From the IMG/VR virus record IMGVR_UViG_2529292836_000011, positions 1 through 24,486 of that record: a stretch of 24,486 bases of DNA; one strand, written 5' to 3'. A program made the translations under genes and the position numbers. Under the pieces are notes generated by a model, which saw only the letters and a list, made by a program, of their open reading frames with translations, did not search any database and was not told the origin of the DNA. This DNA comes from a virus. Its lineage: Duplodnaviria > Heunggongvirae > Uroviricota > Caudoviricetes. Below, piece after piece: positions 1 to 24,486 of the stretch; positions within the stretch are counted from its first letter, which is position 1, and every line of letters starts with the position of its first letter.

Positions 1-155
1 GCCACGAAAGGCCAGCTCTCCGAAAGCGCACGAACATACTACAAACTGTTGATTTTGGTACACCCAGGCGACGCCCGGCCACAACCCGGGGTAAATGTTC
101 TTCAAAGTGAAGACGTAAAGCTTCAGTGATCCAGGTCCGGTGTTTCATACGATAG

Positions 156-186
156 TGTCCATTAAAAATGATGGACATTATTTTTG
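156..186 (+). terminator. Terminator-like hairpin (GTCCAT, 8-nt loop, ATGGAC) followed by a T-rich run
   Basis: Inverted repeat gtccat/atggac at 157-162 and 171-176, followed by attatttttg. Read directly from the sequence. Confidence 0.35.
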
Positions 187-222
187 TAGAGCCGGAGGAA
201 ACAGACCAGACGGTTTAAATGA

Positions 223-456
223 GCCGGTTACGGTATAGCGTCATTCTGTCCCTATAACATTGGCCCCGGTAAGTGTTTCCCGTCGACGTTTTATAAGCGG
301 CTGAATGCCGGTGATCGTAAGGGCGCATGCGAGGCGATTCGCTGGTGGATAAAAGATGGTGGGCGCGATTGCCGCATACGTTCAAATAACTGCTATGGAC
401 AGGTTATTCGTCGTGACCAGGAAAGCGCATTAGCCTGTTGGGGGATAGATCAGTGA
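223..456 (+). pseudogene. Endolysin (GH24 T4/P21-type lysozyme) C-terminal fragment, 5'-truncated
   Basis: Frame-1 translation ...[55 protein letters not shown] resembles the C-terminus of P21 R/RrrD-type lysozymes. An in-frame TGA at 220-222 and no in-frame ATG/GTG/TTG leave only 77 codons. Its stop overlaps the Rz start. Confidence 0.6.
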
Positions 457-911
457 GCAGAGTCGCCGCGATTATTTATGCTCTGGTTATCTGCATCATC
501 GTCTGCCTGTCATGGGCTGTTAATCATTACCGTGATAACGCAATCGCCTACAAAGAGCAGCGCGATAACAAGGCCAGTGAACTGGAGAAGGCGAACGCCA
601 CCATCGCTGACATGCGGAAGCGTCAACGTGATGTAGCAGAACTCGACGCAAGATACACAAAGGAGCTTGCTGATGCTAACGCGACTATCGAAAGTCTCCG
701 TGCTGATGTTTCTGCTGGGCGTAAGCGCCTGCAAGTCGCCGCCACCTGTGCAAAGTCAACGACCGGAGCCAGCGGCATGGGCGATGGAGAAAGCCCAAGA
801 CTTACAGCAGATGCTGAACTCAATTATTACCGTCTCCGAAGTGGAATCGACAGGATAACCGCGCAGGTTAACTACCTGCAGGAATACATCAGGACGCAAT
901 GCCTTCGATGA
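453..911 (+). CDS. Rz: Rz i-spanin (lysis protein)
   Basis: Translation [38 protein letters not shown]... closely matches the recalled lambda Rz sequence (N-terminal TM helix, coiled coil, C-terminal Cys). The GTG at 453 overlaps the endolysin stop; the ORF track's start at 438 is probably an over-extension. Confidence 0.85.
673..858 (+). CDS. Rz1: Rz1 o-spanin (outer-membrane lipoprotein), embedded in the +1 frame of Rz
   Basis: ORF lies wholly inside Rz in another frame. Signal peptide with lipobox LLGVSAC and a proline-rich stretch ([12 protein letters not shown]) as in lambda Rz1. AGGAG sits 7 nt upstream of the ATG at 673. Confidence 0.8.
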
Positions 912-1290
912 TAGCGATAATTTTACTCATCATCCTTCACATCTGGCTCTGTAGACAGGGTGGTGATCACTTCTGGAGTGAATCCAGATTAAACATCTCA
1001 TTGCTGATGCTTGATATTGAGCATCTGGCGCGCGGTAAGGGGCTGCGTTGAGATAAGAGCCAGTTCATTACAAAGCCTATCTACTGGTGGGCTTGATAAT
1101 GAAACCGGAATTTATTCTGGGTAACCAGTTACGGCAGTACAGCGAAACAACCAAAGCCAGTAAGTGGGGAAATAACACTGGCATCCACTGAAAGATGAAC
1201 CTCCTGCCTTATGGCAAAAAAAGATTCTTTGTGGTGGCGGACTGATGGAAAGACATCCTAATCAAGCAACCACTCCACAGGGTCATAATT

Positions 1291-7074: not shown

Positions 7075-8334
7075 ATGGCTAACCAATTAGCAAAAGACCT
7101 TGAAATCATGTTCGAAAACTACGTTGAAGGCTTTGAGGCCGCCTGCGTAGTTTCCCGTAACGCTAAAAAATTCCGTCCCGGTGATACAGCAATGCAGCGA
7201 GCAGGTGATGTTCTGTATCGTCCGCAGCATTACCACATGAACATTGAGGAGGGCTTGGACCTCAGCGAAAAAACACCAACAGCACTGGTTCAGCGCCTTG
7301 TTCCTTCTGTGTTCAAGGAGCCGAAAAACATTCTGTACACTCTGGATGCGCGTGAAATGCGTGACCCGGAACATAAAACTGAAGCTGGTCGAGCCGCAGG
7401 TATGCGCCTTGCTGCACAGATTGACTCTGACCTGATTTCCATGGTCACGCAGCGTGCTACTAACGTGGTCGCAATTCCTGCCTCAGAAAATGGCTCACGG
7501 GGCCTTGCCTTGTGGAATGGTGCGGCAGATATTGATGCCACCATGACGGCGATTGGTGTACCTCAGGGTATCAACCGTCGCTCTTTCTGGAACCCATTCA
7601 ACTACAAAGACCTTGCTGGCGAGCTTGGTCACCGTGCCTACGCTCAGGGCGCAACCCTGACAGCATACGAAAAAGCGCAGATCCCTCCGGTTGCTTCCTT
7701 TGATAGCTACAAGACCGATATTTCCGGTCGATTACCGGCAGGAAGCACTGAAACCTTGACAGTATCAAATAAACCTGAACACAAGGTTGAAGCGAAAGAT
7801 TCAAATGGCATGCCTGTTGATAACCGACAGGGGACCATTACGGTATCTGCTAAAGGCTTGCAGGTTGGCGATGCGTTTACCATCGCAGGTGTGAATTCCG
7901 TACACCAGATCACCAAAGATACCACCGGGCAGCCGCAGGTATTCCGCGTTCTGGCAGTAGACACAGCAGGAACCACCGTAACAATCTCTCCAAAGATTCT
8001 CCCTGTTGGAAATGCCGATGTTGCGAGCCGTCCATATGCAAACGTCGATGCCAAGCCGGCAGAAACTGCAGCAATCACCATTCTCAACAAGAACGCAGCA
8101 CCTGCTAACCTGTTCTGGGCTGATGGTTCTGTTGAGCTGATGTACGGCAAACTGGCGTTCCCGACTGGTCAGGGTCCACAGGTAATGACGGCAACCACCG
8201 AGCAGGGCGCTACGCTGATTATGTCTTACGCCTTCGACCACATCAAAGGCGTAACCACTGCGCGTTTCACCACTCTGTACGGCTGCTCTGTACTTGTTCC
8301 TGAATATACGGGCATCGTTATTGCCGGGCAGTAA
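7075..8334 (+). CDS. Major capsid (coat) protein (P22 gp5-like)
   Basis: 419 aa, after the scaffold gene, with C-terminal blocks resembling P22 coat (PYANVDA..., NLFWADGS). Confidence 0.88.
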   Translation: MANQLAKDLEIMFENYVEGFEAACVVSRNAKKFRPGDTAMQRAGDVLYRPQHYHMNIEEGLDLSEKTPTALVQRLVPSVFKEPKNILYTLDAREMRDPEHKTEAGRAAGMRLAAQIDSDLISMVTQRATNVVAIPASENGSRGLALWNGAADIDATMTAIGVPQGINRRSFWNPFNYKDLAGELGHRAYAQGATLTAYEKAQIPPVASFDSYKTDISGRLPAGSTETLTVSNKPEHKVEAKDSNGMPVDNRQGTITVSAKGLQVGDAFTIAGVNSVHQITKDTTGQPQVFRVLAVDTAGTTVTISPKILPVGNADVASRPYANVDAKPAETAAITILNKNAAPANLFWADGSVELMYGKLAFPTGQGPQVMTATTEQGATLIMSYAFDHIKGVTTARFTTLYGCSVLVPEYTGIVIAGQ

Positions 8335-15776: not shown

Positions 15777-16127
15777 CTAATTTTTATTCTTTGATCTCGT
15801 CCACAGGTAAAGAAGAGCAATGGCAAGACAGGAAACAGAGAATAGATAACCTACCTCATATGGTGCGCCAAAAAAATTAGCTATTGATACGGGCAAAAAA
15901 GCCGAAGCGATCAGAATTGAAAGGCAAAAAATAAGCCCAGTAACATAGTTTATTAAACTCTTAAATGAGAAACGTTTTGCTTGATTTACGGTCTCAGCGA
16001 GTGATCGCTTAACGATGGATAAAAGAAAATAGATGGCGACAGTAGCTAATGCCCCTTTCCACCAGTCTGGATATAGTTTTGCGACAATCAGCCCAAGGAA
16101 AACCATGATGACAGACTGAGCATTCAC
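15777..16127 (-). CDS. Small multi-pass inner-membrane protein (possible superinfection-exclusion moron)
   Basis: About 117 aa from a GTG preceded by AAGGAGG (5-nt spacer), with three to four hydrophobic helices. AT-rich. The ORF-track start at 16202 adds a non-hydrophobic extension. Convergent with the gp16-like gene. Confidence 0.55.
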   Translation of the reverse strand: MNAQSVIMVFLGLIVAKLYPDWWKGALATVAIYFLLSIVKRSLAETVNQAKRFSFKSLINYVTGLIFCLSILIASAFLPVSIANFFGAPYEVGYLFSVSCLAIALLYLWTRSKNKN

Positions 16128-16192
16128 ACCAACCTCCTTAGTTTTGCTCAGGATACCAGATGATAATGTGTAGTTGGAGTAGCGCGGTTGTA

Positions 16193-16282
16193 ATGCAAGC
16201 ATTTTGTTTTGGTTTTATGCTTGCTTGTATGTGTGTACAGTGTATATAATGCAAGCATACATCACAATAAAGGTGCTTGCAT
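16193..16282 (+). promoter_or_regulatory. Divergent promoter region with two copies of a palindromic operator (half-site ATGCAAGCAT, 14-bp spacer)
   Basis: ATGCAAGCAT at 16193-16202 pairs with inverted ATGCTTGC at 16217-16224. ATGCAAGCAT at 16249-16258 pairs with GTGCTTGCAT at 16273-16282. A TATAAT at 16245-16250 overlaps the second operator. Confidence 0.5.
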
Positions 16283-16283
16283 T

Positions 16284-17276
16284 ATGACTGAAAAGAAAAG
16301 TGGCGAAGGGAAAGCTAAGGGCGGTATCGCTCGCGCAAAGTCGCTGACTAAAGAGCAGCGTTCTGAAATAGCAAAGAAAGCAGCGGCTGCAAGATGGAAG
16401 GATAAACCATTAATTGCTACGCATAAGGGATCGTTCCAGCATGAATTCGGGATTGATGTTGAGTGCTATGTGTTAAATGATGATAACAAAACTGCCGTTA
16501 TTAGCCAGAGAGGCATGGGAGAAGCGATTGGTCTTGGCGAAGGTGGCAGCAGGTTGCCAAAGTTTATTCAGGGGAAAACTATTTCTCAGTATATCGGGCA
16601 TGAATTAAGGGCAAAACTTGAAAATCCTCTTATTTTTCAATACAAACAGGCGGGCACGAACACTCCAGCTAATCCTGTAATACATGGCTACGATGTAACA
16701 ATATTAATTGATTTATGTCGAGCAATCTCTAATGCTAAAGCTGAAGGTAAGTTGCTTTCCAGTCAGGAAGGGATTGCTAAGCAAGCCAGAATCATTATTG
16801 ATGCATCAGCCAAGGCGGGCATTCAGGGGCTTGTTTATGCTTTGGCAGGGTATGACAGAACAAAAGAAGAGGTAATTCAAGCATATAAGCGATATGTTGC
16901 TGAAGAGGCTCGTGAGTATGAAAGAGAGTTCACCCCTGAACTTTATGAGCATTGGTATCGTCTGTATGGTATAGACAAACCAGTTAGAGGGCGACCATGG
17001 GCGTTTAAATATCTTACGATAGATCACATTTATTACCCATTAGCCAGAAGTGAAGGAAAGGTATTTAATTTAGCAAAAACGTCAAAAGAAGAAAAAGGCA
17101 GCAAAAACGATAAAATACACCAGTTTTTATCAGAGGTTGGAGTTAAGGCTCTTAGAACCCAAATAGGTAAGGTTACTGGTATTGCAATGGTTTCTGATAC
17201 TCGAGAAGAGTATGAGAAATACATAGATGAAAAGGTTATTGGACAAAGAACCATAGACTTAAAAGATAAAGAATAA
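16284..17276 (+). CDS. Hypothetical 331-aa protein with a basic N-terminal tail (possibly P63C-domain / anti-repressor-like family)
   Basis: ATG at 16284 preceded by AAAGGTG. N-terminal KGGIARAKSLTKEQRSEIAKKAAAARW motif. Followed by a strong terminator. The ORF-track start at 16209 would run through the promoter and operators. Family assignment is tentative. Confidence 0.7.
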   Translation: MTEKKSGEGKAKGGIARAKSLTKEQRSEIAKKAAAARWKDKPLIATHKGSFQHEFGIDVECYVLNDDNKTAVISQRGMGEAIGLGEGGSRLPKFIQGKTISQYIGHELRAKLENPLIFQYKQAGTNTPANPVIHGYDVTILIDLCRAISNAKAEGKLLSSQEGIAKQARIIIDASAKAGIQGLVYALAGYDRTKEEVIQAYKRYVAEEAREYEREFTPELYEHWYRLYGIDKPVRGRPWAFKYLTIDHIYYPLARSEGKVFNLAKTSKEEKGSKNDKIHQFLSEVGVKALRTQIGKVTGIAMVSDTREEYEKYIDEKVIGQRTIDLKDKE

Positions 17277-17282
17277 GAAAAT

Positions 17283-17304
17283 CCCACCGTCAGGTGGGTT
17301 TTTT
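17283..17304 (+). terminator. Rho-independent terminator (CCCACC-GTCA-GGTGGG then TTTTTT)
   Basis: Perfect 6-bp GC-rich stem with a T6 run, directly after the 16284-17276 gene; an A-run upstream makes it potentially bidirectional. Confidence 0.7.
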
Positions 17305-17317
17305 ATAAGGAGTAATC

Positions 17318-17503
17318 ATGACCATAGAAGAACGTCTGAACAACATTGAGTTGAATCAAACCCTGCTTGACCAGCGACTTTCAGATCTTGAGCTTAAAGA
17401 TCTAGATGTGCAAATATCAGAAGCAGAAGCCAAGCTCTCCAGCTTAAACCACCGCAGGAAGCAAATCCGCGACAGAATTACTCGTGGACGCGGAGGCTGT
17501 TAA
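17318..17503 (+). CDS. Hypothetical small coiled-coil protein
   Basis: 61 aa, with AGGAG 7 nt upstream of the ATG. Heptad-like Leu/Glu pattern and a basic C-terminus (RRKQIRDRITRGRGGC). Confidence 0.5.
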   Translation: MTIEERLNNIELNQTLLDQRLSDLELKDLDVQISEAEAKLSSLNHRRKQIRDRITRGRGGC

Positions 17504-17580
17504 GGTGTGATGGTAATCCTTGCTCACTAAATTTAAGGATGCGAATCTTTCCGGCCATAGGAGTAATCATGATTTACCCA

Positions 17581-18117
17581 TCAAACAACCCACCAGTTTG
17601 CCTGATTGGATACCAGCCTTGCAGTTTTTATGGAATTAATTATGCCATGCTCAAGAGCCTTGTTAGCATCCAAAATGGTCGAGTCTGCTATCAGGGATGC
17701 CCACCTAATATGGGTTCCGATGTCGATATTGAACGTCTCAACGAAGCGATCAAGATCGTTATCGAGGCATTTCCCGTACTCTCTCAATCTGGCATGGTCG
17801 GCGGCTGGGGAGGCAAAGCACCATAATAGAGGATGTAACAGGAATCTTGATAATGGGTTTGCGAAACGTTCTGAGCCAGCCAGGAAAACGATATTAGCTA
17901 TGGATTCAACATTGCTTATGTTGTGAGTTCTAACGGTAACAGGGAGTGACTTAAGAAAGTTATACGCAGTAAAGCCAGCGGCAGTTTCCCCTCCCTGACT
18001 TGATATATGGATATTTAATTCAGTTGCGCCTTGAGATAATGCGGTGAGACAGTGGTTCTGAAGTTGCCCAACAGTGGCAGTGTTAACGGGGCATAAGAAA
18101 TGAATTGTGTGCAGCAT
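17581..18117 (-). CDS. ClpP-like (peptidase S14-fold) protein, N-terminally truncated; translationally coupled to mnt
   Basis: Ungapped match to the recalled ClpP core from the GG motif to the active-site Ser (ISSQGG for INSPGG; VESIAN for AASMGA). His-box RFANPLSRFLLHP for RFCLPNSRVMIHQP. The Asp position reads GIINSI for GLVDSI. Its ATG overlaps the mnt stop (TAATG). Confidence 0.5.
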   Translation of the reverse strand: MLHTIHFLCPVNTATVGQLQNHCLTALSQGATELNIHISSQGGETAAGFTAYNFLKSLPVTVRTHNISNVESIANIVFLAGSERFANPLSRFLLHPLLWCFASPAADHARLREYGKCLDNDLDRFVETFNIDIGTHIRWASLIADSTILDANKALEHGIINSIKTARLVSNQANWWVV

Positions 18118-18365
18118 TATTTTTCATCCTTACCATACATGGTCTTTAGCGTCTCAAGCAGCGCCTCTTTGAATTTGTCAGCTTCTTGCTGAGCAAATGA
18201 CTCAACTGACTTTGGCGACCTATCTTCATCAATCGCGGCTTGCAAAATCATGACGATCTCGGAGTTAACAGAGCGACCATTTTTTGATGCTCTGACAGCA
18301 AGAGCCTCGCGTAAAGATTCAGGGATTCTTACCGTAGTTGGAGAAATTGACACACCCTTTGCCAT
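18117..18365 (-). CDS. mnt: Mnt-like ribbon-helix-helix repressor
   Basis: 82 aa from the ATG at 18365 (AAGGTG upstream). RASKNGRSVNSEIVMILQAAI matches the Arc/Mnt signature (recalled P22 Mnt: RAEANGRSMNSELLQIVQDAL); C-terminus TLKTMYGK versus TLKDLYKK. Confidence 0.8.
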   Translation of the reverse strand: MAKGVSISPTTVRIPESLREALAVRASKNGRSVNSEIVMILQAAIDEDRSPKSVESFAQQEADKFKEALLETLKTMYGKDEK

Positions 18366-18479
18366 ATCACACCTTTGGTATTCAATTTGATAGCAAAGTG
18401 TATGCAAAAAAATTTTGACTAGATATACTCACTTTGATATCTTTTGTATTCGAAAAGAGTTGTTTGCGTGGAGGGTAAC
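18366..18479 (+). promoter_or_regulatory. Divergent mnt/arc promoter-operator region (immI-like)
   Basis: AT-rich 114-bp gap between divergent RHH repressor genes, containing TTGACT and TATACT/TATCTT-like hexamers. By analogy to P22 Pmnt/Pant; the operators were not mapped. Confidence 0.45.
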
Positions 18480-19867: not shown

Positions 19868-22138
19868 ATGACAGACATTACAGCCAATGTGATCGTATCG
19901 ATGCCTTCGCAACTATTCACTATGGCTCGTTCTTTTAAAGCCGTAGCCAATGGCAAAATTTATATCGGTAAAATTGACACTGACCCGGTAAATCCTGAAA
20001 ACCGGATTCAGGTTTATGTGGAGAATGAAGACGGTTCTCACGTTCCTGTATCTCAACCAATCATCATTAACGCTGCCGGATATCCGGTATATAACGGACA
20101 GATTGCCAAATTCGTTACCGTGCAAGGCCATTCTATGGCTGTTTATGATGCATATGGTGCGCAGCAGTTCTATTTTCCGAATGTGCTGAAGTATGACCCT
20201 GATCAACTGCGATCTGAACTGGAGGGTCCTGGTGGAGCTGGATTTGTCGGAGGATTAGCAAAGCCTGTTACTTGGAGTGGTTTTGCCGGAGGTGCTGATC
20301 CTACTGGTGTGCTTGATTCAACTGCGGCGTTTCTGGCTGCCAATGCCACGAAAAGTAAAATTTATATCCCAGCGGGCACATACAAACTAACCCAAGATGT
20401 AGTGTCTGATCCCCTTACATCATGGGAAATGGAGATGGGGGTTTCATTTATAGGTGGATACTGGCTGCGTCAGGTACCTTGGTTGTCAGGTGTAGGTAAT
20501 AATATATTTTACTATCTCGAAAGACACTGTAGAAATACATTTATTGCGCCACCTGACGGCATAGGTGTTTACGGGTCGGCACACACTGCCCTCGGTGGTG
20601 CAGGCGGTGCTGCATTAGGGGTGGCAGGTACTGCGATAAACGATGATACATCTGGCTCACGATCAAGTGTGTGGGCCTTGTACGGTTCAGCTATACGCAA
20701 TGCAGGAACAATAGGAGCAAGTCACGGTCTTGAACTTGATATAGCAAACAGGGGGAATGAGCGTGAAATGTATCCTAATTCAATGTTCCCCAACGGTCAG
20801 ACTGACGCATTATGGTTAGGCTCAGGTGGTGAATTAACCCAAGCTGGAGAAGTGTTGAATGCTGCATCGGCAGCAATTGGAATAATAGCTAACGACAAAA
20901 CTGCTGGGAAAACAGCGCGCTTTCTGAAGGGCATCGTATTTGGCAGTAATAGCCTTAAAGGAACCGATGGAGAATCAACAGGTCAAGGTGTGGCAATTGC
21001 TTTTGGTAATAGGCACTCAATGACCTGGTACAACAATTTAAATCAGAAAACTTCTGAAATACTCTCTGTTTTGGAGGATGCAACCAGATCAACCAGAATG
21101 TTATTTAGTGATAATGGCGTAGTATTTACACGATTATCGTCTGGGTTGCCTATATTTGCCATAGAGTCTGGGCCTACAGTTCCTGCCAATTATCTATCCA
21201 TGCGCTCGCATACAGAATCTAATGCTCCTGCTGTTGGCGTTGCTGGAAGCGATAAAGATATTCATTTGAGGCTATCTCCAAAAGGGGATGGCATTGTAAT
21301 AGTAGACTCATCTATTGCACCATTATCACAGAACAGTAACAGCACGGTCGGAACTGCTGGTCGTGTGTGGTCTGGTGGATTCACTCAAACAGCCTTTACC
21401 GTTACTTCAGATGAGCGAGCTAAAACTGCACCTCTTGAAATCACTGATACAATACTTGACGCATGGTCAGAGGTTGACTTCGTTCAATTTCAGTATCTTG
21501 ACAGAACAGAAGAAAAAGGGGAAGACGGAGCTCGTTGGCATTTTGGCGTAATAGCTCAACGTGCAAAGGAGGCGTTTGAACGTCATGGGCTTGATGTGCA
21601 CCGATTTGGATTCTTTTGCTTTGACGAGTGGGATGATCAATATACTAAGGTTCAGACAAACGAAGGTGTAATGGTTACTAAAACTCGCATAACAACAGTT
21701 CCAGTGCAGGTTACTAAAACTCGAATTGTAAGCAAACCAGTGATGGTTACTGAGAGTCGTCAGGTATTAAAGGATGAGGTACTGGAAGACGGAACACGGA
21801 TTAAACGAGTAGTGAATGAAGAGTATCAGACTCCAAAAATGGAAATGATACCTGTTCTTAATGAAGATGGTTCACCTTTTGCGCAAAATCCATTCGTAAG
21901 CGTTCCTGTAGTTGAAGATGTAGAAGAGGAGTACATCGAGACAGAGTTTCAAGAAGTAGAAGAAGAGTATGAAGAAGAGGCAGAACCAGAATATGAAGAT
22001 ATTCTGGTCACTCCGGCAGGCTCACGTTATGGTATCCGTTATGAAGAGGCGTTAGTCCTTGAAGCTGCATTACAACGCAGGAATTACCAAAAAGCATTAT
22101 CTAGAATTGAAATGATAGAAATGAGAGAAAATATATAA
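19868..22138 (+). CDS. Tailspike: P22-type N-terminal head-binding domain, divergent receptor-binding domain, C-terminal S74-type intramolecular chaperone domain
   Basis: N-terminal ~115 aa ([11 protein letters not shown]...[21 protein letters not shown]...[12 protein letters not shown]...NVLKYDPDQ) near-match the recalled P22 gp9 N-terminus. The centre is AT-richer and Gly/Ser/Ala-rich. The C-terminus carries TSDERAKT and [13 protein letters not shown] motifs typical of autocleaving chaperone domains. Confidence 0.9.
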
Positions 22139-22232: not shown

Positions 22233-22877
22233 TTATTTTTCTGAAGCGCTTCTGTTTTCTAATATTTTTAATGGGATTTCAATATTAGACGTCCCGAAAG
22301 ATGAACCAATCAAATTCCACAGCTCATTAGGTTTTAACTTCCACCATTCAGTCTTTAATAATCTATCAATTATTTCTGGAGGATGTCTGTATCTAATAAC
22401 CTTAGCTGGTACTCCTCCTACAATTGCATATGGCGGTACATCTTTAGTAACAACAGAGCCTGCGGCAATGATGGCACCAGTTCCAATATTAACCCCTGCT
22501 AAAATTGTACATCTAGAACCAATCCATACATCATGCCCTATGATAACATCAAGATCTTTCCCAAATATGTCAGAGCTCGCCTGCCATATATGTCCTGTAG
22601 GGTTAAATCCATTTCTTAACTCAGGATCTACAACCATATTTAGCGGGTAACTTGTTAATGTATTTGTCGCATGACGACCTTGTCTTCCAACAAAAATCAC
22701 AACGTCGAAAGCTATAGAGCAATATTCACCAATTGAAAGAATTCGCTTGTCGTCATGCATCCCAATCTCAATTCTTGGTTTTCCGTATGTGTATTCACCA
22801 CACTGAATAGTCAAGAAATCTCTGCTGTAATTAGATCTTAAATAAGAAGCAGTTGATGCTGGGCCAGGAAAATTCAT
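22233..22877 (-). CDS. Hexapeptide-repeat acetyltransferase of the XAT class (Vat/CatB-like)
   Basis: 214 aa; C-terminal IGHDVWIGSRCTILAGVNIGTGAIIAAGSVVTKDVPPYAIVGGVPAKVIRYRHPPEIIDRLLKTEWWKL closely parallels recalled CatB/Vat sequences (IGNDVWIG...GDGA...VTKDV.PYAI.GG.PAK.IK.RF...I..L....WWNW). Markedly AT-rich compared with the structural genes. Confidence 0.85.
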   Translation of the reverse strand: MNFPGPASTASYLRSNYSRDFLTIQCGEYTYGKPRIEIGMHDDKRILSIGEYCSIAFDVVIFVGRQGRHATNTLTSYPLNMVVDPELRNGFNPTGHIWQASSDIFGKDLDVIIGHDVWIGSRCTILAGVNIGTGAIIAAGSVVTKDVPPYAIVGGVPAKVIRYRHPPEIIDRLLKTEWWKLKPNELWNLIGSSFGTSNIEIPLKILENRSASEK

Positions 22878-23152
22878 TGTTATACCTATAGATAATTACT
22901 AAATTCTTGTAAATATAGCTTCATGTTAATAGATAAAACTGCAATTGGTACAATACCACATATTGTCTTTGTTTGAACACTAAGATTGCAAACGCTTGTC
23001 TACTAAGTGGGCACTGAAGGATCGCGATCCGCAGACACATCAAGCAAGTCAGCATTCTATGGCGTGCTGTTACCGATGAAACAAAACGGAGACACACAAA
23101 GCTTTGCACTGGATTGCAAGGCTTTGTGCTCTTCGATAGTTGTTAAGGTGGA

Positions 23153-24310
23153 TCACTCCACCTTTTCATCAATCCAGTCAGCCCACCACTGCATCATTTC
23201 TCTGCGTTTATCGAGATACTGAGCATGGTTGTAAATCCCACGCACAGATCCGCCGTTGGCATGTGCCAGTTGCACTTCAATAGCGTCAGCAGGCCATTCG
23301 TGCTCGTTCATAATTGTGCTGAATTCATGCCTGAATCCGTGACCGCTTTCCAGACCCTCATAGCCGATTTGTTTGATCACAAGTAATACCGCGTTCTCGC
23401 AGATTGGCTTTTTCTTATCGTTGCGCCCGGAAAAAACAAACTCTGATACTGGTTTGGTGATTGAGCTTAGCGTAGTGAGAAGTTCAACCCCCTGGTCTGA
23501 CATCGGTACTACATGAATCTTGCGGCCCTTCATCACACTGGCGTCGATGGTGATAATCCTGTTTTCAAAATCGACGTTCTTCCATAGCATGGAACGAAGC
23601 TCTTTCGTTCTTAGGGCTGTGTAGCGTAAAACTTTGGTCGCAATGAGCGATACGATACTTCCTGAAAATGTTGCCAGTGCTTTGTTGAATGCCGGGATCT
23701 GGTCGGCAGGTAAAAACGGGAAGTTCTTCTTGCGATATCCTTTCATGGCGTCTGCAAGGTCAGGTGCCGGGTTATATTTAGCCCTTCCGGTGACAATAGC
23801 GTAACGGAAAACCTCGCCGCATCTTCTACGTGCTTTGTTGGCTCGCTCCATTGCACCGCGATATTCAAATCTGCGGATTACTTCCAGCAGTTGTATCGGC
23901 TCAATATCCTGAATTTCAAGGCCGCCGATGATAGGTAAAATGTCGTCGTCAAACATTTTGGCAAGTTCGTTTGCATAGCCTACTGACCAGACTTGCTTCT
24001 TGTGCTCGTACCATTCCTTGTAAATCGCACTAAAGGAATTGTTGTTAGACGAAGCCTTTTTCGCCCTTACCGGATCGATGCCAACCGAGATGTCTTTCCT
24101 CGCAGTCCATGCCTTATCCCTTGCTTCCTGCAAAGTCATAAGCGGATATTTTCCGACAGTCAGGATTTTCTCCTTACCGTCAATCTTGTAGCGAAGCTGC
24201 CATACCTTTTTCCCTGATACAGGGACATAAAGGTACAGGCCATTACCATCGAGTAGGCGGTATGGTTTTTCTTTCGGCTTTGCTGCTTCAATCTGCTTAA
24301 CGGTGAGCAT
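23153..24310 (-). CDS. intS: Tyrosine integrase, P4-type (IntS-like)
   Basis: N-terminus LTVKQIEAAKPKEKPYRLLDGNGLYLYVP, catalytic box HGFRHEF and C-terminal Tyr region RGIYNHAQY. Adjacent to a tRNA 3' end. The ATG at 24310 is preferred to the ORF-track GTG at 24346. The intS symbol is by analogy with argW-site integrases. Confidence 0.9.
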   Translation of the reverse strand: MLTVKQIEAAKPKEKPYRLLDGNGLYLYVPVSGKKVWQLRYKIDGKEKILTVGKYPLMTLQEARDKAWTARKDISVGIDPVRAKKASSNNNSFSAIYKEWYEHKKQVWSVGYANELAKMFDDDILPIIGGLEIQDIEPIQLLEVIRRFEYRGAMERANKARRRCGEVFRYAIVTGRAKYNPAPDLADAMKGYRKKNFPFLPADQIPAFNKALATFSGSIVSLIATKVLRYTALRTKELRSMLWKNVDFENRIITIDASVMKGRKIHVVPMSDQGVELLTTLSSITKPVSEFVFSGRNDKKKPICENAVLLVIKQIGYEGLESGHGFRHEFSTIMNEHEWPADAIEVQLAHANGGSVRGIYNHAQYLDKRREMMQWWADWIDEKVE

Positions 24311-24471
24311 GGGTAAAAATCCGGTGGGTAAAATTATTTTATCCACTTTTTACCCGTCATGGAGTGCGGCTGTCAACGATCTGACGCGAACCATGACGAA
24401 CTGTGAATATACGGAAGGCTTGATATTCAGGGGATTTTGCGGACTGGTACGGATGGTAGCGAACTGATAAA

Positions 24472-24486
24472 TGGTGTCCCCTGCAG
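24472..24486 (-). tRNA. argW: 3' end of a tRNA gene (acceptor arm plus CCA), consistent with tRNA-Arg argW; truncated by the window edge
   Basis: Reverse complement of the last 15 nt is CTGCAGGGGACACCA, matching the recalled 3' end of E. coli argW (...GGTTCGATTCCTGCAGGGGACACCA). Location next to the integrase start fits an attL. Confidence 0.5.

Follow-up and report, generated by a model that had tools for sequence, protein, structure and literature searches.

An IS66-family insertion interrupts the endolysin gene at the contig end of an Sf6/P22-like Escherichia coli prophage

ISCro1 is an IS66-family element that alters gene expression in Escherichia coli sequence type ST131 (PMC8764528). 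Members of this family, ISCro1 included, are well documented in E. coli, where their insertion is known to inactivate genes or change their function. The ISCro1 group of the IS66 family shares with the element described here the gene order tnpA-tnpB-tnpC, imperfect ends that begin with GTAA, an 8-bp target duplication, and the presence of many copies per genome. The ISCro1 of PMC8764528 is 2,824 bp long, whereas the present element measures 2,699 bp, and for this reason we call the latter a member of the ISCro1 family by RefSeq naming only and not ISCro1 itself.

The gene into which this element is inserted belongs with the GH24 endolysins of rrrD/rrrQ prophages, with which it shares the PF00959 domain and, in its relatives, an upstream class II holin of 71 amino acids (PF04971) followed by YdfR, both of them 5' of the lysozyme and outside the stretch analyzed here. 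It differs from those endolysins in being split by an insertion sequence (IS) after residue 106, with residues 104 to 177 falling within our stretch. The pairing of such an endolysin with a class II holin presumably resembles the S21/R21 system of phage 21. Downstream, the locus has the embedded Rz/Rz1 arrangement of lambda and P22, in which Rz carries an N-terminal transmembrane segment and the lipoprotein gene Rz1 lies wholly inside Rz in another frame. The Sf6, CUS-3, and Sf101 prophages at argW share Rz, gene 65, gene 66, terminase, portal, coat, gp4, and gp10 with the locus at 93 to 96% DNA identity, and likewise have IntS and argW at their end. They match only from position 454 on, however; their endolysin allele differs, and their holin is of the lambda family. 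We therefore regard the lysis module here as a mosaic replacement.

The window, by which we mean the whole stretch of 24,486 bp that was analyzed, is the entire draft contig AQEB01000011.1 (GCA_000354895.2), as an exact look-up of its Rz protein revealed. Its left edge lies 231 bp inside the IS66-family element; its right edge, beyond intS, reaches about 14 bp into argW. The two edges look like assembly breaks caused by repeats, and they bound the late half of a prophage. The right edge is the boundary between prophage and host, at which a duplication of the attachment core is presumed. ARAGORN detected no tRNA in the window, which is consistent with a contig that cuts argW. The features are as follows.

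1 to 231, minus strand: last 231 bp of an insertion sequence of the IS66 family (labeled ISCro1 family in RefSeq; the full copy is 2,699 bp)
2 to 178, minus strand: first 59 codons of tnpA, with ATG at 178 and no stops, open to the window edge
202 to 231, minus strand: IS terminal inverted repeat, GTAACCGGCTCATTTAAACCGT... on the minus strand; 18 of the 30 terminal bases match the other end, GTAAGCGACTCGTCAGAACCGT
232 to 239, no strand: one copy of the 8-bp target-site duplication GGTATAGC, which flanks both IS ends in strain NCCP 13717
232 to 456, plus strand: 3' part of a phage lysozyme gene (GH24; allele type rrrD/rrrQ), covering residues 104 to 177 of 177 and the stop codon
453 to 911, plus strand: Rz (i-spanin), 152 amino acids, PF03245 positions 1 to 125 of 126 (E = 1.4e-40)
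673 to 858, plus strand: Rz1 (o-spanin lipoprotein), 61 amino acids, PF06085 positions 1 to 41 of 41 (E = 2.2e-20)
899 to 1051, plus strand: Sf6 gene 65 homolog, a hydrophobic open reading frame (ORF) of 50 amino acids, named after the Sf6 annotation and matching phrog_11822 over its full length (E = 3.9e-38)
1291 to 22138, plus strand: Sf6/CUS-3/P22-like late region with all ORFs open, from Pfam and PHROG matches

An earlier note on this DNA had described a lysozyme-like frame of 77 codons that has no start and is preceded by an in-frame TGA, and our analysis agrees: frame 1 is open from 223 to 453 and closed by TGA at 454 to 456, with TGA also at 220 to 222, and no in-frame ATG, GTG, or TTG occurs within the 77 codons. 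Only 74 of these codons (232 to 453) derive from a lysozyme, the upstream TGA and codons 223 to 231 being part of the IS terminal inverted repeat. The lysozyme fragment matches PHROG 7 endolysin (E = 1e-26) and, over profile positions 73 to 125 of 125 only, PF00959 (E = 1.1e-8), so that the complete domain is not present. Thousands of E. coli genomes contain annotated lysozyme genes that are 98 to 99% identical to it in DNA, and the match is therefore not due to chance. When positions 1 to 1300 of the window were compared by megablast with 5,426 complete E. coli genomes, thousands of lysozyme-Rz cassettes were matched; the intact lysozyme genes of more than 5,000 genomes all align from base 232 onward, and none extends further left. 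A sequencing error or frameshift whose correction would restore the endolysin was considered and rejected, since in all genomes the homology to intact genes breaks off sharply at 232. The catalytic Glu-8aa-Asp-5aa-Thr motif is absent from the fragment in the window. By eye, E-x8-D-x5-T, which we take to be the catalytic motif of GH24/T4-type lysozymes, can be read in the 5' half (EGNHTTAYRDGSGIWT) of the corresponding loci L002 (strain NCCP 13717) and L005 (a draft contig described below). In relatives, the N terminus of this 5' half is a Gly/Ala-rich hydrophobic stretch, MNAKIRYGLSAAVLALIAVGAP, which lies outside the window.

The bases that precede position 232 form the end of an IS. Positions 1 to 231 are 100% identical to positions 8001 to 8231 of L002, an IS end in E. 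coli NCCP 13717. Searched alone, window positions 1 to 240 matched 2,419 records; 1,840 of them, all from E. coli, are at least 99% identical and carry the annotation “IS66-like element accessory protein TnpA.” The RefSeq tnpA coding sequence occupies positions 7501 to 8178 of L002. On the minus strand of the window, the start of this gene is easily missed, since the ORF lister omits ORFs that run off the end. On the plus strand, positions 1 to 220 contain stops in all three frames and no holin-like ORF, as had been reported, the only ORFs being of 26 and 32 amino acids.

The IS terminus is base 231, and the right-hand copy of GGTATAGC follows directly at 232 to 239, the left-hand copy lying outside the window. 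The two IS ends, GTAAGCGACTCG... and GTAACCGGCTCA..., are imperfect repeats of each other that both begin with GTAA and agree at 18 of 30 bases. In NCCP 13717, the full copy encodes TnpA (225 amino acids), TnpB (115 amino acids), and an “IS66-like element ISCro1 family transposase” (tnpC; 523 amino acids); transposase domains of the DDE_Tnp_IS66 type (PF03050/PF13817) were seen in L005. The element thus combines the tnpA-tnpB-tnpC order, the 8-bp target duplication, and the imperfect GTAA terminal inverted repeats of the IS66 family, with the gene order judged on the NCCP 13717 copy and the window itself holding only 59 codons of tnpA.

Among the 5,426 complete E. coli genomes, a single one, NCCP 13717, has the identical IS/lysozyme junction. 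The order there is class II holin (71 amino acids, pinholin type), YdfR, the 5' 106 codons of the lysozyme, GGTATAGC, the IS, GGTATAGC again, the lysozyme 3' part, and Rz. The 5' half of the lysozyme ends in ...CCACAAAAAGCGGGTATAGC before the right end of the IS (GTAAGCGACTCG...), the junction being CCACAAAAAGCGGGTATAGCGTAAGCGACTCG; its truncated product is 106 amino acids long and ends in ...PQKAGIA, with a stop that arises three bases into the IS. Exactly this product is on record on five to seven contigs in public assemblies, and the carriers listed are AQDX01000036.1, a metagenome scaffold in ENA, a Logan contig, and JAVSRJ010000107.1. At least two contigs, L005 and L006, contain the full holin, YdfR, and the lysozyme 5' part and then break inside the right end of the IS, while L007 and L008 are shorter and stop at the gene itself. 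L005, which is AQDX01000036.1 from another assembly, is 100% identical to NCCP 13717 over 5.9 kb.

Joining the 5' piece from L005 to the 3' piece in the window and removing one copy of the duplication yields an uninterrupted ORF of 534 bp and 177 amino acids. The reconstructed protein covers PF00959 positions 2 to 125 and shows two differences from a full-length E. coli lysozyme (P0004) and three from the intact gene of strain EM20-18-50 (L001). Because the two halves rejoin into an intact ORF once one copy of the duplication is removed, we conclude that transposition was clean and that no target sequence was lost. We also considered an insertion hotspot and rejected it: the junction is shared by only 1 of the 5,426 complete genomes, and repeated insertion is less likely than common descent with recombination. 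The lysozyme is also on record in E. coli assemblies in many other truncated versions, 66 to 162 amino acids long; these are probably a mix of contig-edge partials and independent disruptions.

The endolysin gene is truly interrupted. We put the probability at roughly 85% that an insertion of an IS66-family element into the endolysin gene, together with a contig that ends inside that element, accounts for the locus, the predicted far side and functional outcome included. According to this reading, an Sf6/P22-like prophage integrated at argW would have received an element of 2,699 bp (ISCro1 family) in its lysis cassette, at codons 104 to 106 of the GH24 endolysin gene, with duplication of the 8-bp GGTATAGC. 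Since the left end of the contig is 231 bp inside the IS, nothing but the IS end, the last 74 endolysin codons, and the genes downstream is visible. The holin, YdfR, and the endolysin 5' part of the same strain would then reside on another contig that ends in the opposite end of the IS; this upstream context is extrapolated from NCCP 13717, in which the split endolysin belongs to a different prophage.

The left edge is an assembly break within a multicopy IS rather than the end of a biological deletion, given that the window equals a whole draft contig and that this contig ends within such an element. The IS end matches eight places in the NCCP 13717 genome, a copy number that explains the break, since repeats of this kind are classic break points of short-read assemblies. 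It follows that the absence of a holin cannot be concluded from the contig: the holin lies outside it, and its being missing from the window is a property of the contig that does not imply its absence from the strain. Likewise, the statement that the endolysin lacks its 5' half stands insofar as the gene is interrupted, but a deletion of the 5' half is not supported; what replaces it in the window is an IS that ends at 231.

The outcome for the phage can be reasoned from general knowledge of GH24 lysozymes and of lambdoid lysis. The 106-amino-acid product of the 5' part has the signal-anchor-like N terminus and E-x8-D-x5-T without the C-terminal lobe and is probably inactive, and the 3' fragment has no start codon. 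Termination-resistant late transcription, antiterminated by Q, could cross the IS, so that Rz/Rz1 and the virion genes would be expressed. Induction would then kill cells via the holin with few particles released. A lysis defect is plausible because the endolysin is interrupted and Rz/Rz1 and the virion genes are intact.

An alternative that starts from the same insertion is that a later event, either an IS-mediated deletion of adjacent DNA or recombination with another copy of the IS, left the cassette really without its endolysin 5' half and holin. The element is multicopy in related genomes, as its eight places in NCCP 13717 illustrate, and the lineage has rearranged, since in that strain the split endolysin sits in another backbone. 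The exact look-up of the 106-amino-acid product did not find the strain's own complementary contig, as no match listed was identifiable as AQEB01, and no visible accession of the product comes from the window's own assembly; EMW62074 and EMW82663 appear to come from assemblies other than that of the window Rz (EMW90454). No positive evidence for such a rearrangement was found, however. Homologous exchange at the endolysin/Rz boundary, downstream of the IS, accounts for the difference in backbone just as well, and the missing accession may be due to annotation or to contig-edge effects. We consider a secondary rearrangement unlikely and continue to favor a clean insertion whose far side lies on another contig.

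The two prophages of NCCP 13717 also bear on whether the window was assembled correctly. The IS-split endolysin of that strain lies in its second prophage, which is HK97-like, carries iss, and is located at 2.86 Mb; in the P22-like prophage, at 1.59 Mb and oppositely oriented, the holin-endolysin pair is intact and a different one. In a three-way alignment, the window resembles the HK97-like, iss-carrying prophage up to about position 470 and the P22-like prophage from about position 480, as would be expected of an assembly chimera in which the IS and endolysin 3' part of one prophage were joined to the Rz and late genes of the other via the conserved 5' region of Rz. Against this, positions 545 to 650 match neither prophage and include a 21-bp indel, and several complete genomes have uninterrupted lysozyme-Rz-gene 65 cassettes with which positions 232 to 1074 are collinear at 98.7% identity, which makes the lysozyme/Rz join a natural module arrangement. 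We thus judge a chimera to be very improbable.

The same rare insertion site, with the same target duplication, is found in the HK97-like lambdoid prophage of NCCP 13717 and in the Sf6/P22-like argW prophage of the window, and on this ground we infer that the split allele arose once and that homologous exchange at the endolysin/Rz boundary came later. It is possible, though somewhat doubtful, that the presence of the split endolysin in these two unrelated backbones reflects an exchange of late regions between prophages at this boundary, or even a large chromosomal inversion between two oppositely oriented prophages.

The earlier note had proposed that the holin and the 5' part of the endolysin were removed by a deletion, for which our analysis offers no support: everything to the left of 232 is an exact IS end, and the contig stops inside that IS. 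Where that note had suggested aligning intact cassettes to locate the deletion junction, such alignments place the boundary at 232, directly after the IS terminus and at the first base of the 8-bp target duplication. Although the window contains no holin or endolysin 5' half and the plus-strand frames of positions 1 to 220 are closed, a simple deletion that left unrelated junk upstream is scarcely credible, because bases 1 to 231 are an exact IS66-family end with the start of tnpA and not junk, the break coincides with the IS terminus and the target duplication, the contig ends inside a repeat, and NCCP 13717, with the same junction, has the missing parts beyond the IS.

Downstream of the insertion, the spanin genes are undamaged, as that note had also stated, with PF03245 and PF06085 matched over their full length. 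Rz starts at a GTG that overlaps the stop of the lysozyme frame (GTGA) and has a transmembrane segment at its N terminus, and the whole of Rz1, a lipoprotein gene with the lipobox VSAC and Cys20, lies inside it in another frame, as in other embedded two-component spanins. The exact Rz protein of the window forms a singleton cluster at 90% identity in a collection of 15 billion proteins and has one GenBank accession, EMW90454.1. Window bases 545 to 650, inside the Rz gene, which differ from both NCCP 13717 prophage alleles and carry 21 bp missing from the P22-like allele, look like a local recombination patch upstream of Rz1. The gene 65 homolog that follows is conserved beside Rz in P22-like phages.

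The claim that the head and tail module is intact also held, all ORFs of the Sf6/P22-like late region being open. This region contains the gp49/gene 66 family, DUF2560, TerS, TerL, portal, scaffold, coat, gp4, and gp10 genes, as well as gp26/14/7/20/16-like genes, ejection protein genes among them, an immI-like region that includes Arc/Mnt and Ant, and the tailspike gene. Among its Pfam matches are P22_portal, P22_CoatProtein, P22_Tail-4, Phage_stabilise, Terminase_3, and Head_binding; the portal, coat, gp4, gp10, and head-binding tailspike families (PF16510, PF11651, PF11650, PF11134, and PF09008) place the prophage among the P22-like phages (Lederbergvirus). The region is 99.1% identical to the P22-like prophage of NCCP 13717 and 94 to 96% identical at the DNA level to phages CUS-3, phiv205-1, and Sf101.

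Accessory genes occupy positions 15777 to 18407, between the gp16-like ejection protein gene and the ant/tailspike region. They comprise a minus-strand ORF of 141 amino acids with no family match, a P63C-domain protein of 355 amino acids (phrog_2384), a ClpP-like serine protease of 178 amino acids on the minus strand (PF00574, E = 2e-11), and an Arc/Mnt-like repressor of 96 amino acids. Judging from its position, that of sieA/immI in P22, the stand-alone Clp-protease-like gene could be superinfection-exclusion or defense cargo. The tailspike (19868 to 22138; 756 amino acids) has a P22 head-binding domain at residues 1 to 113 and an endosialidase-type intramolecular chaperone domain (Peptidase_S74) at residues 514 to 575; about 180 residues follow this domain, which is usually C terminal and self-cleaved.

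The tailspike gene is followed directly by genes for a CatB-like O-acetyltransferase and the integrase IntS, both on the minus strand (22233 to 24486). An integrase beside the tailspike raised the possibility of a circular or tandem phage molecule that contains attP. This was rejected: complete genomes read tailspike, O-acetyltransferase, intS, argW, and the host gene yfdC, and from the order intS-argW-yfdC we conclude that the contig shows what an integrated argW prophage normally has at this end.

Prophage genes are routinely disrupted by IS elements, and contigs routinely break at IS copies; the case adds one more IS knockout of a prophage lysis gene and opens no new question. Its main use is as a correction, in that what looks like a deletion at the first bases of a window can be a contig that breaks within an IS. 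If the exchange or inversion between prophages did take place, it would have put a complete P22-like virion module behind a dead endolysin, a foreign holin, and a foreign late promoter, and that placement would represent a step in prophage domestication. The knockout of the endolysin could keep a P22-like prophage that is complete in other respects locked in its E. coli host, which is of the enterotoxigenic type.
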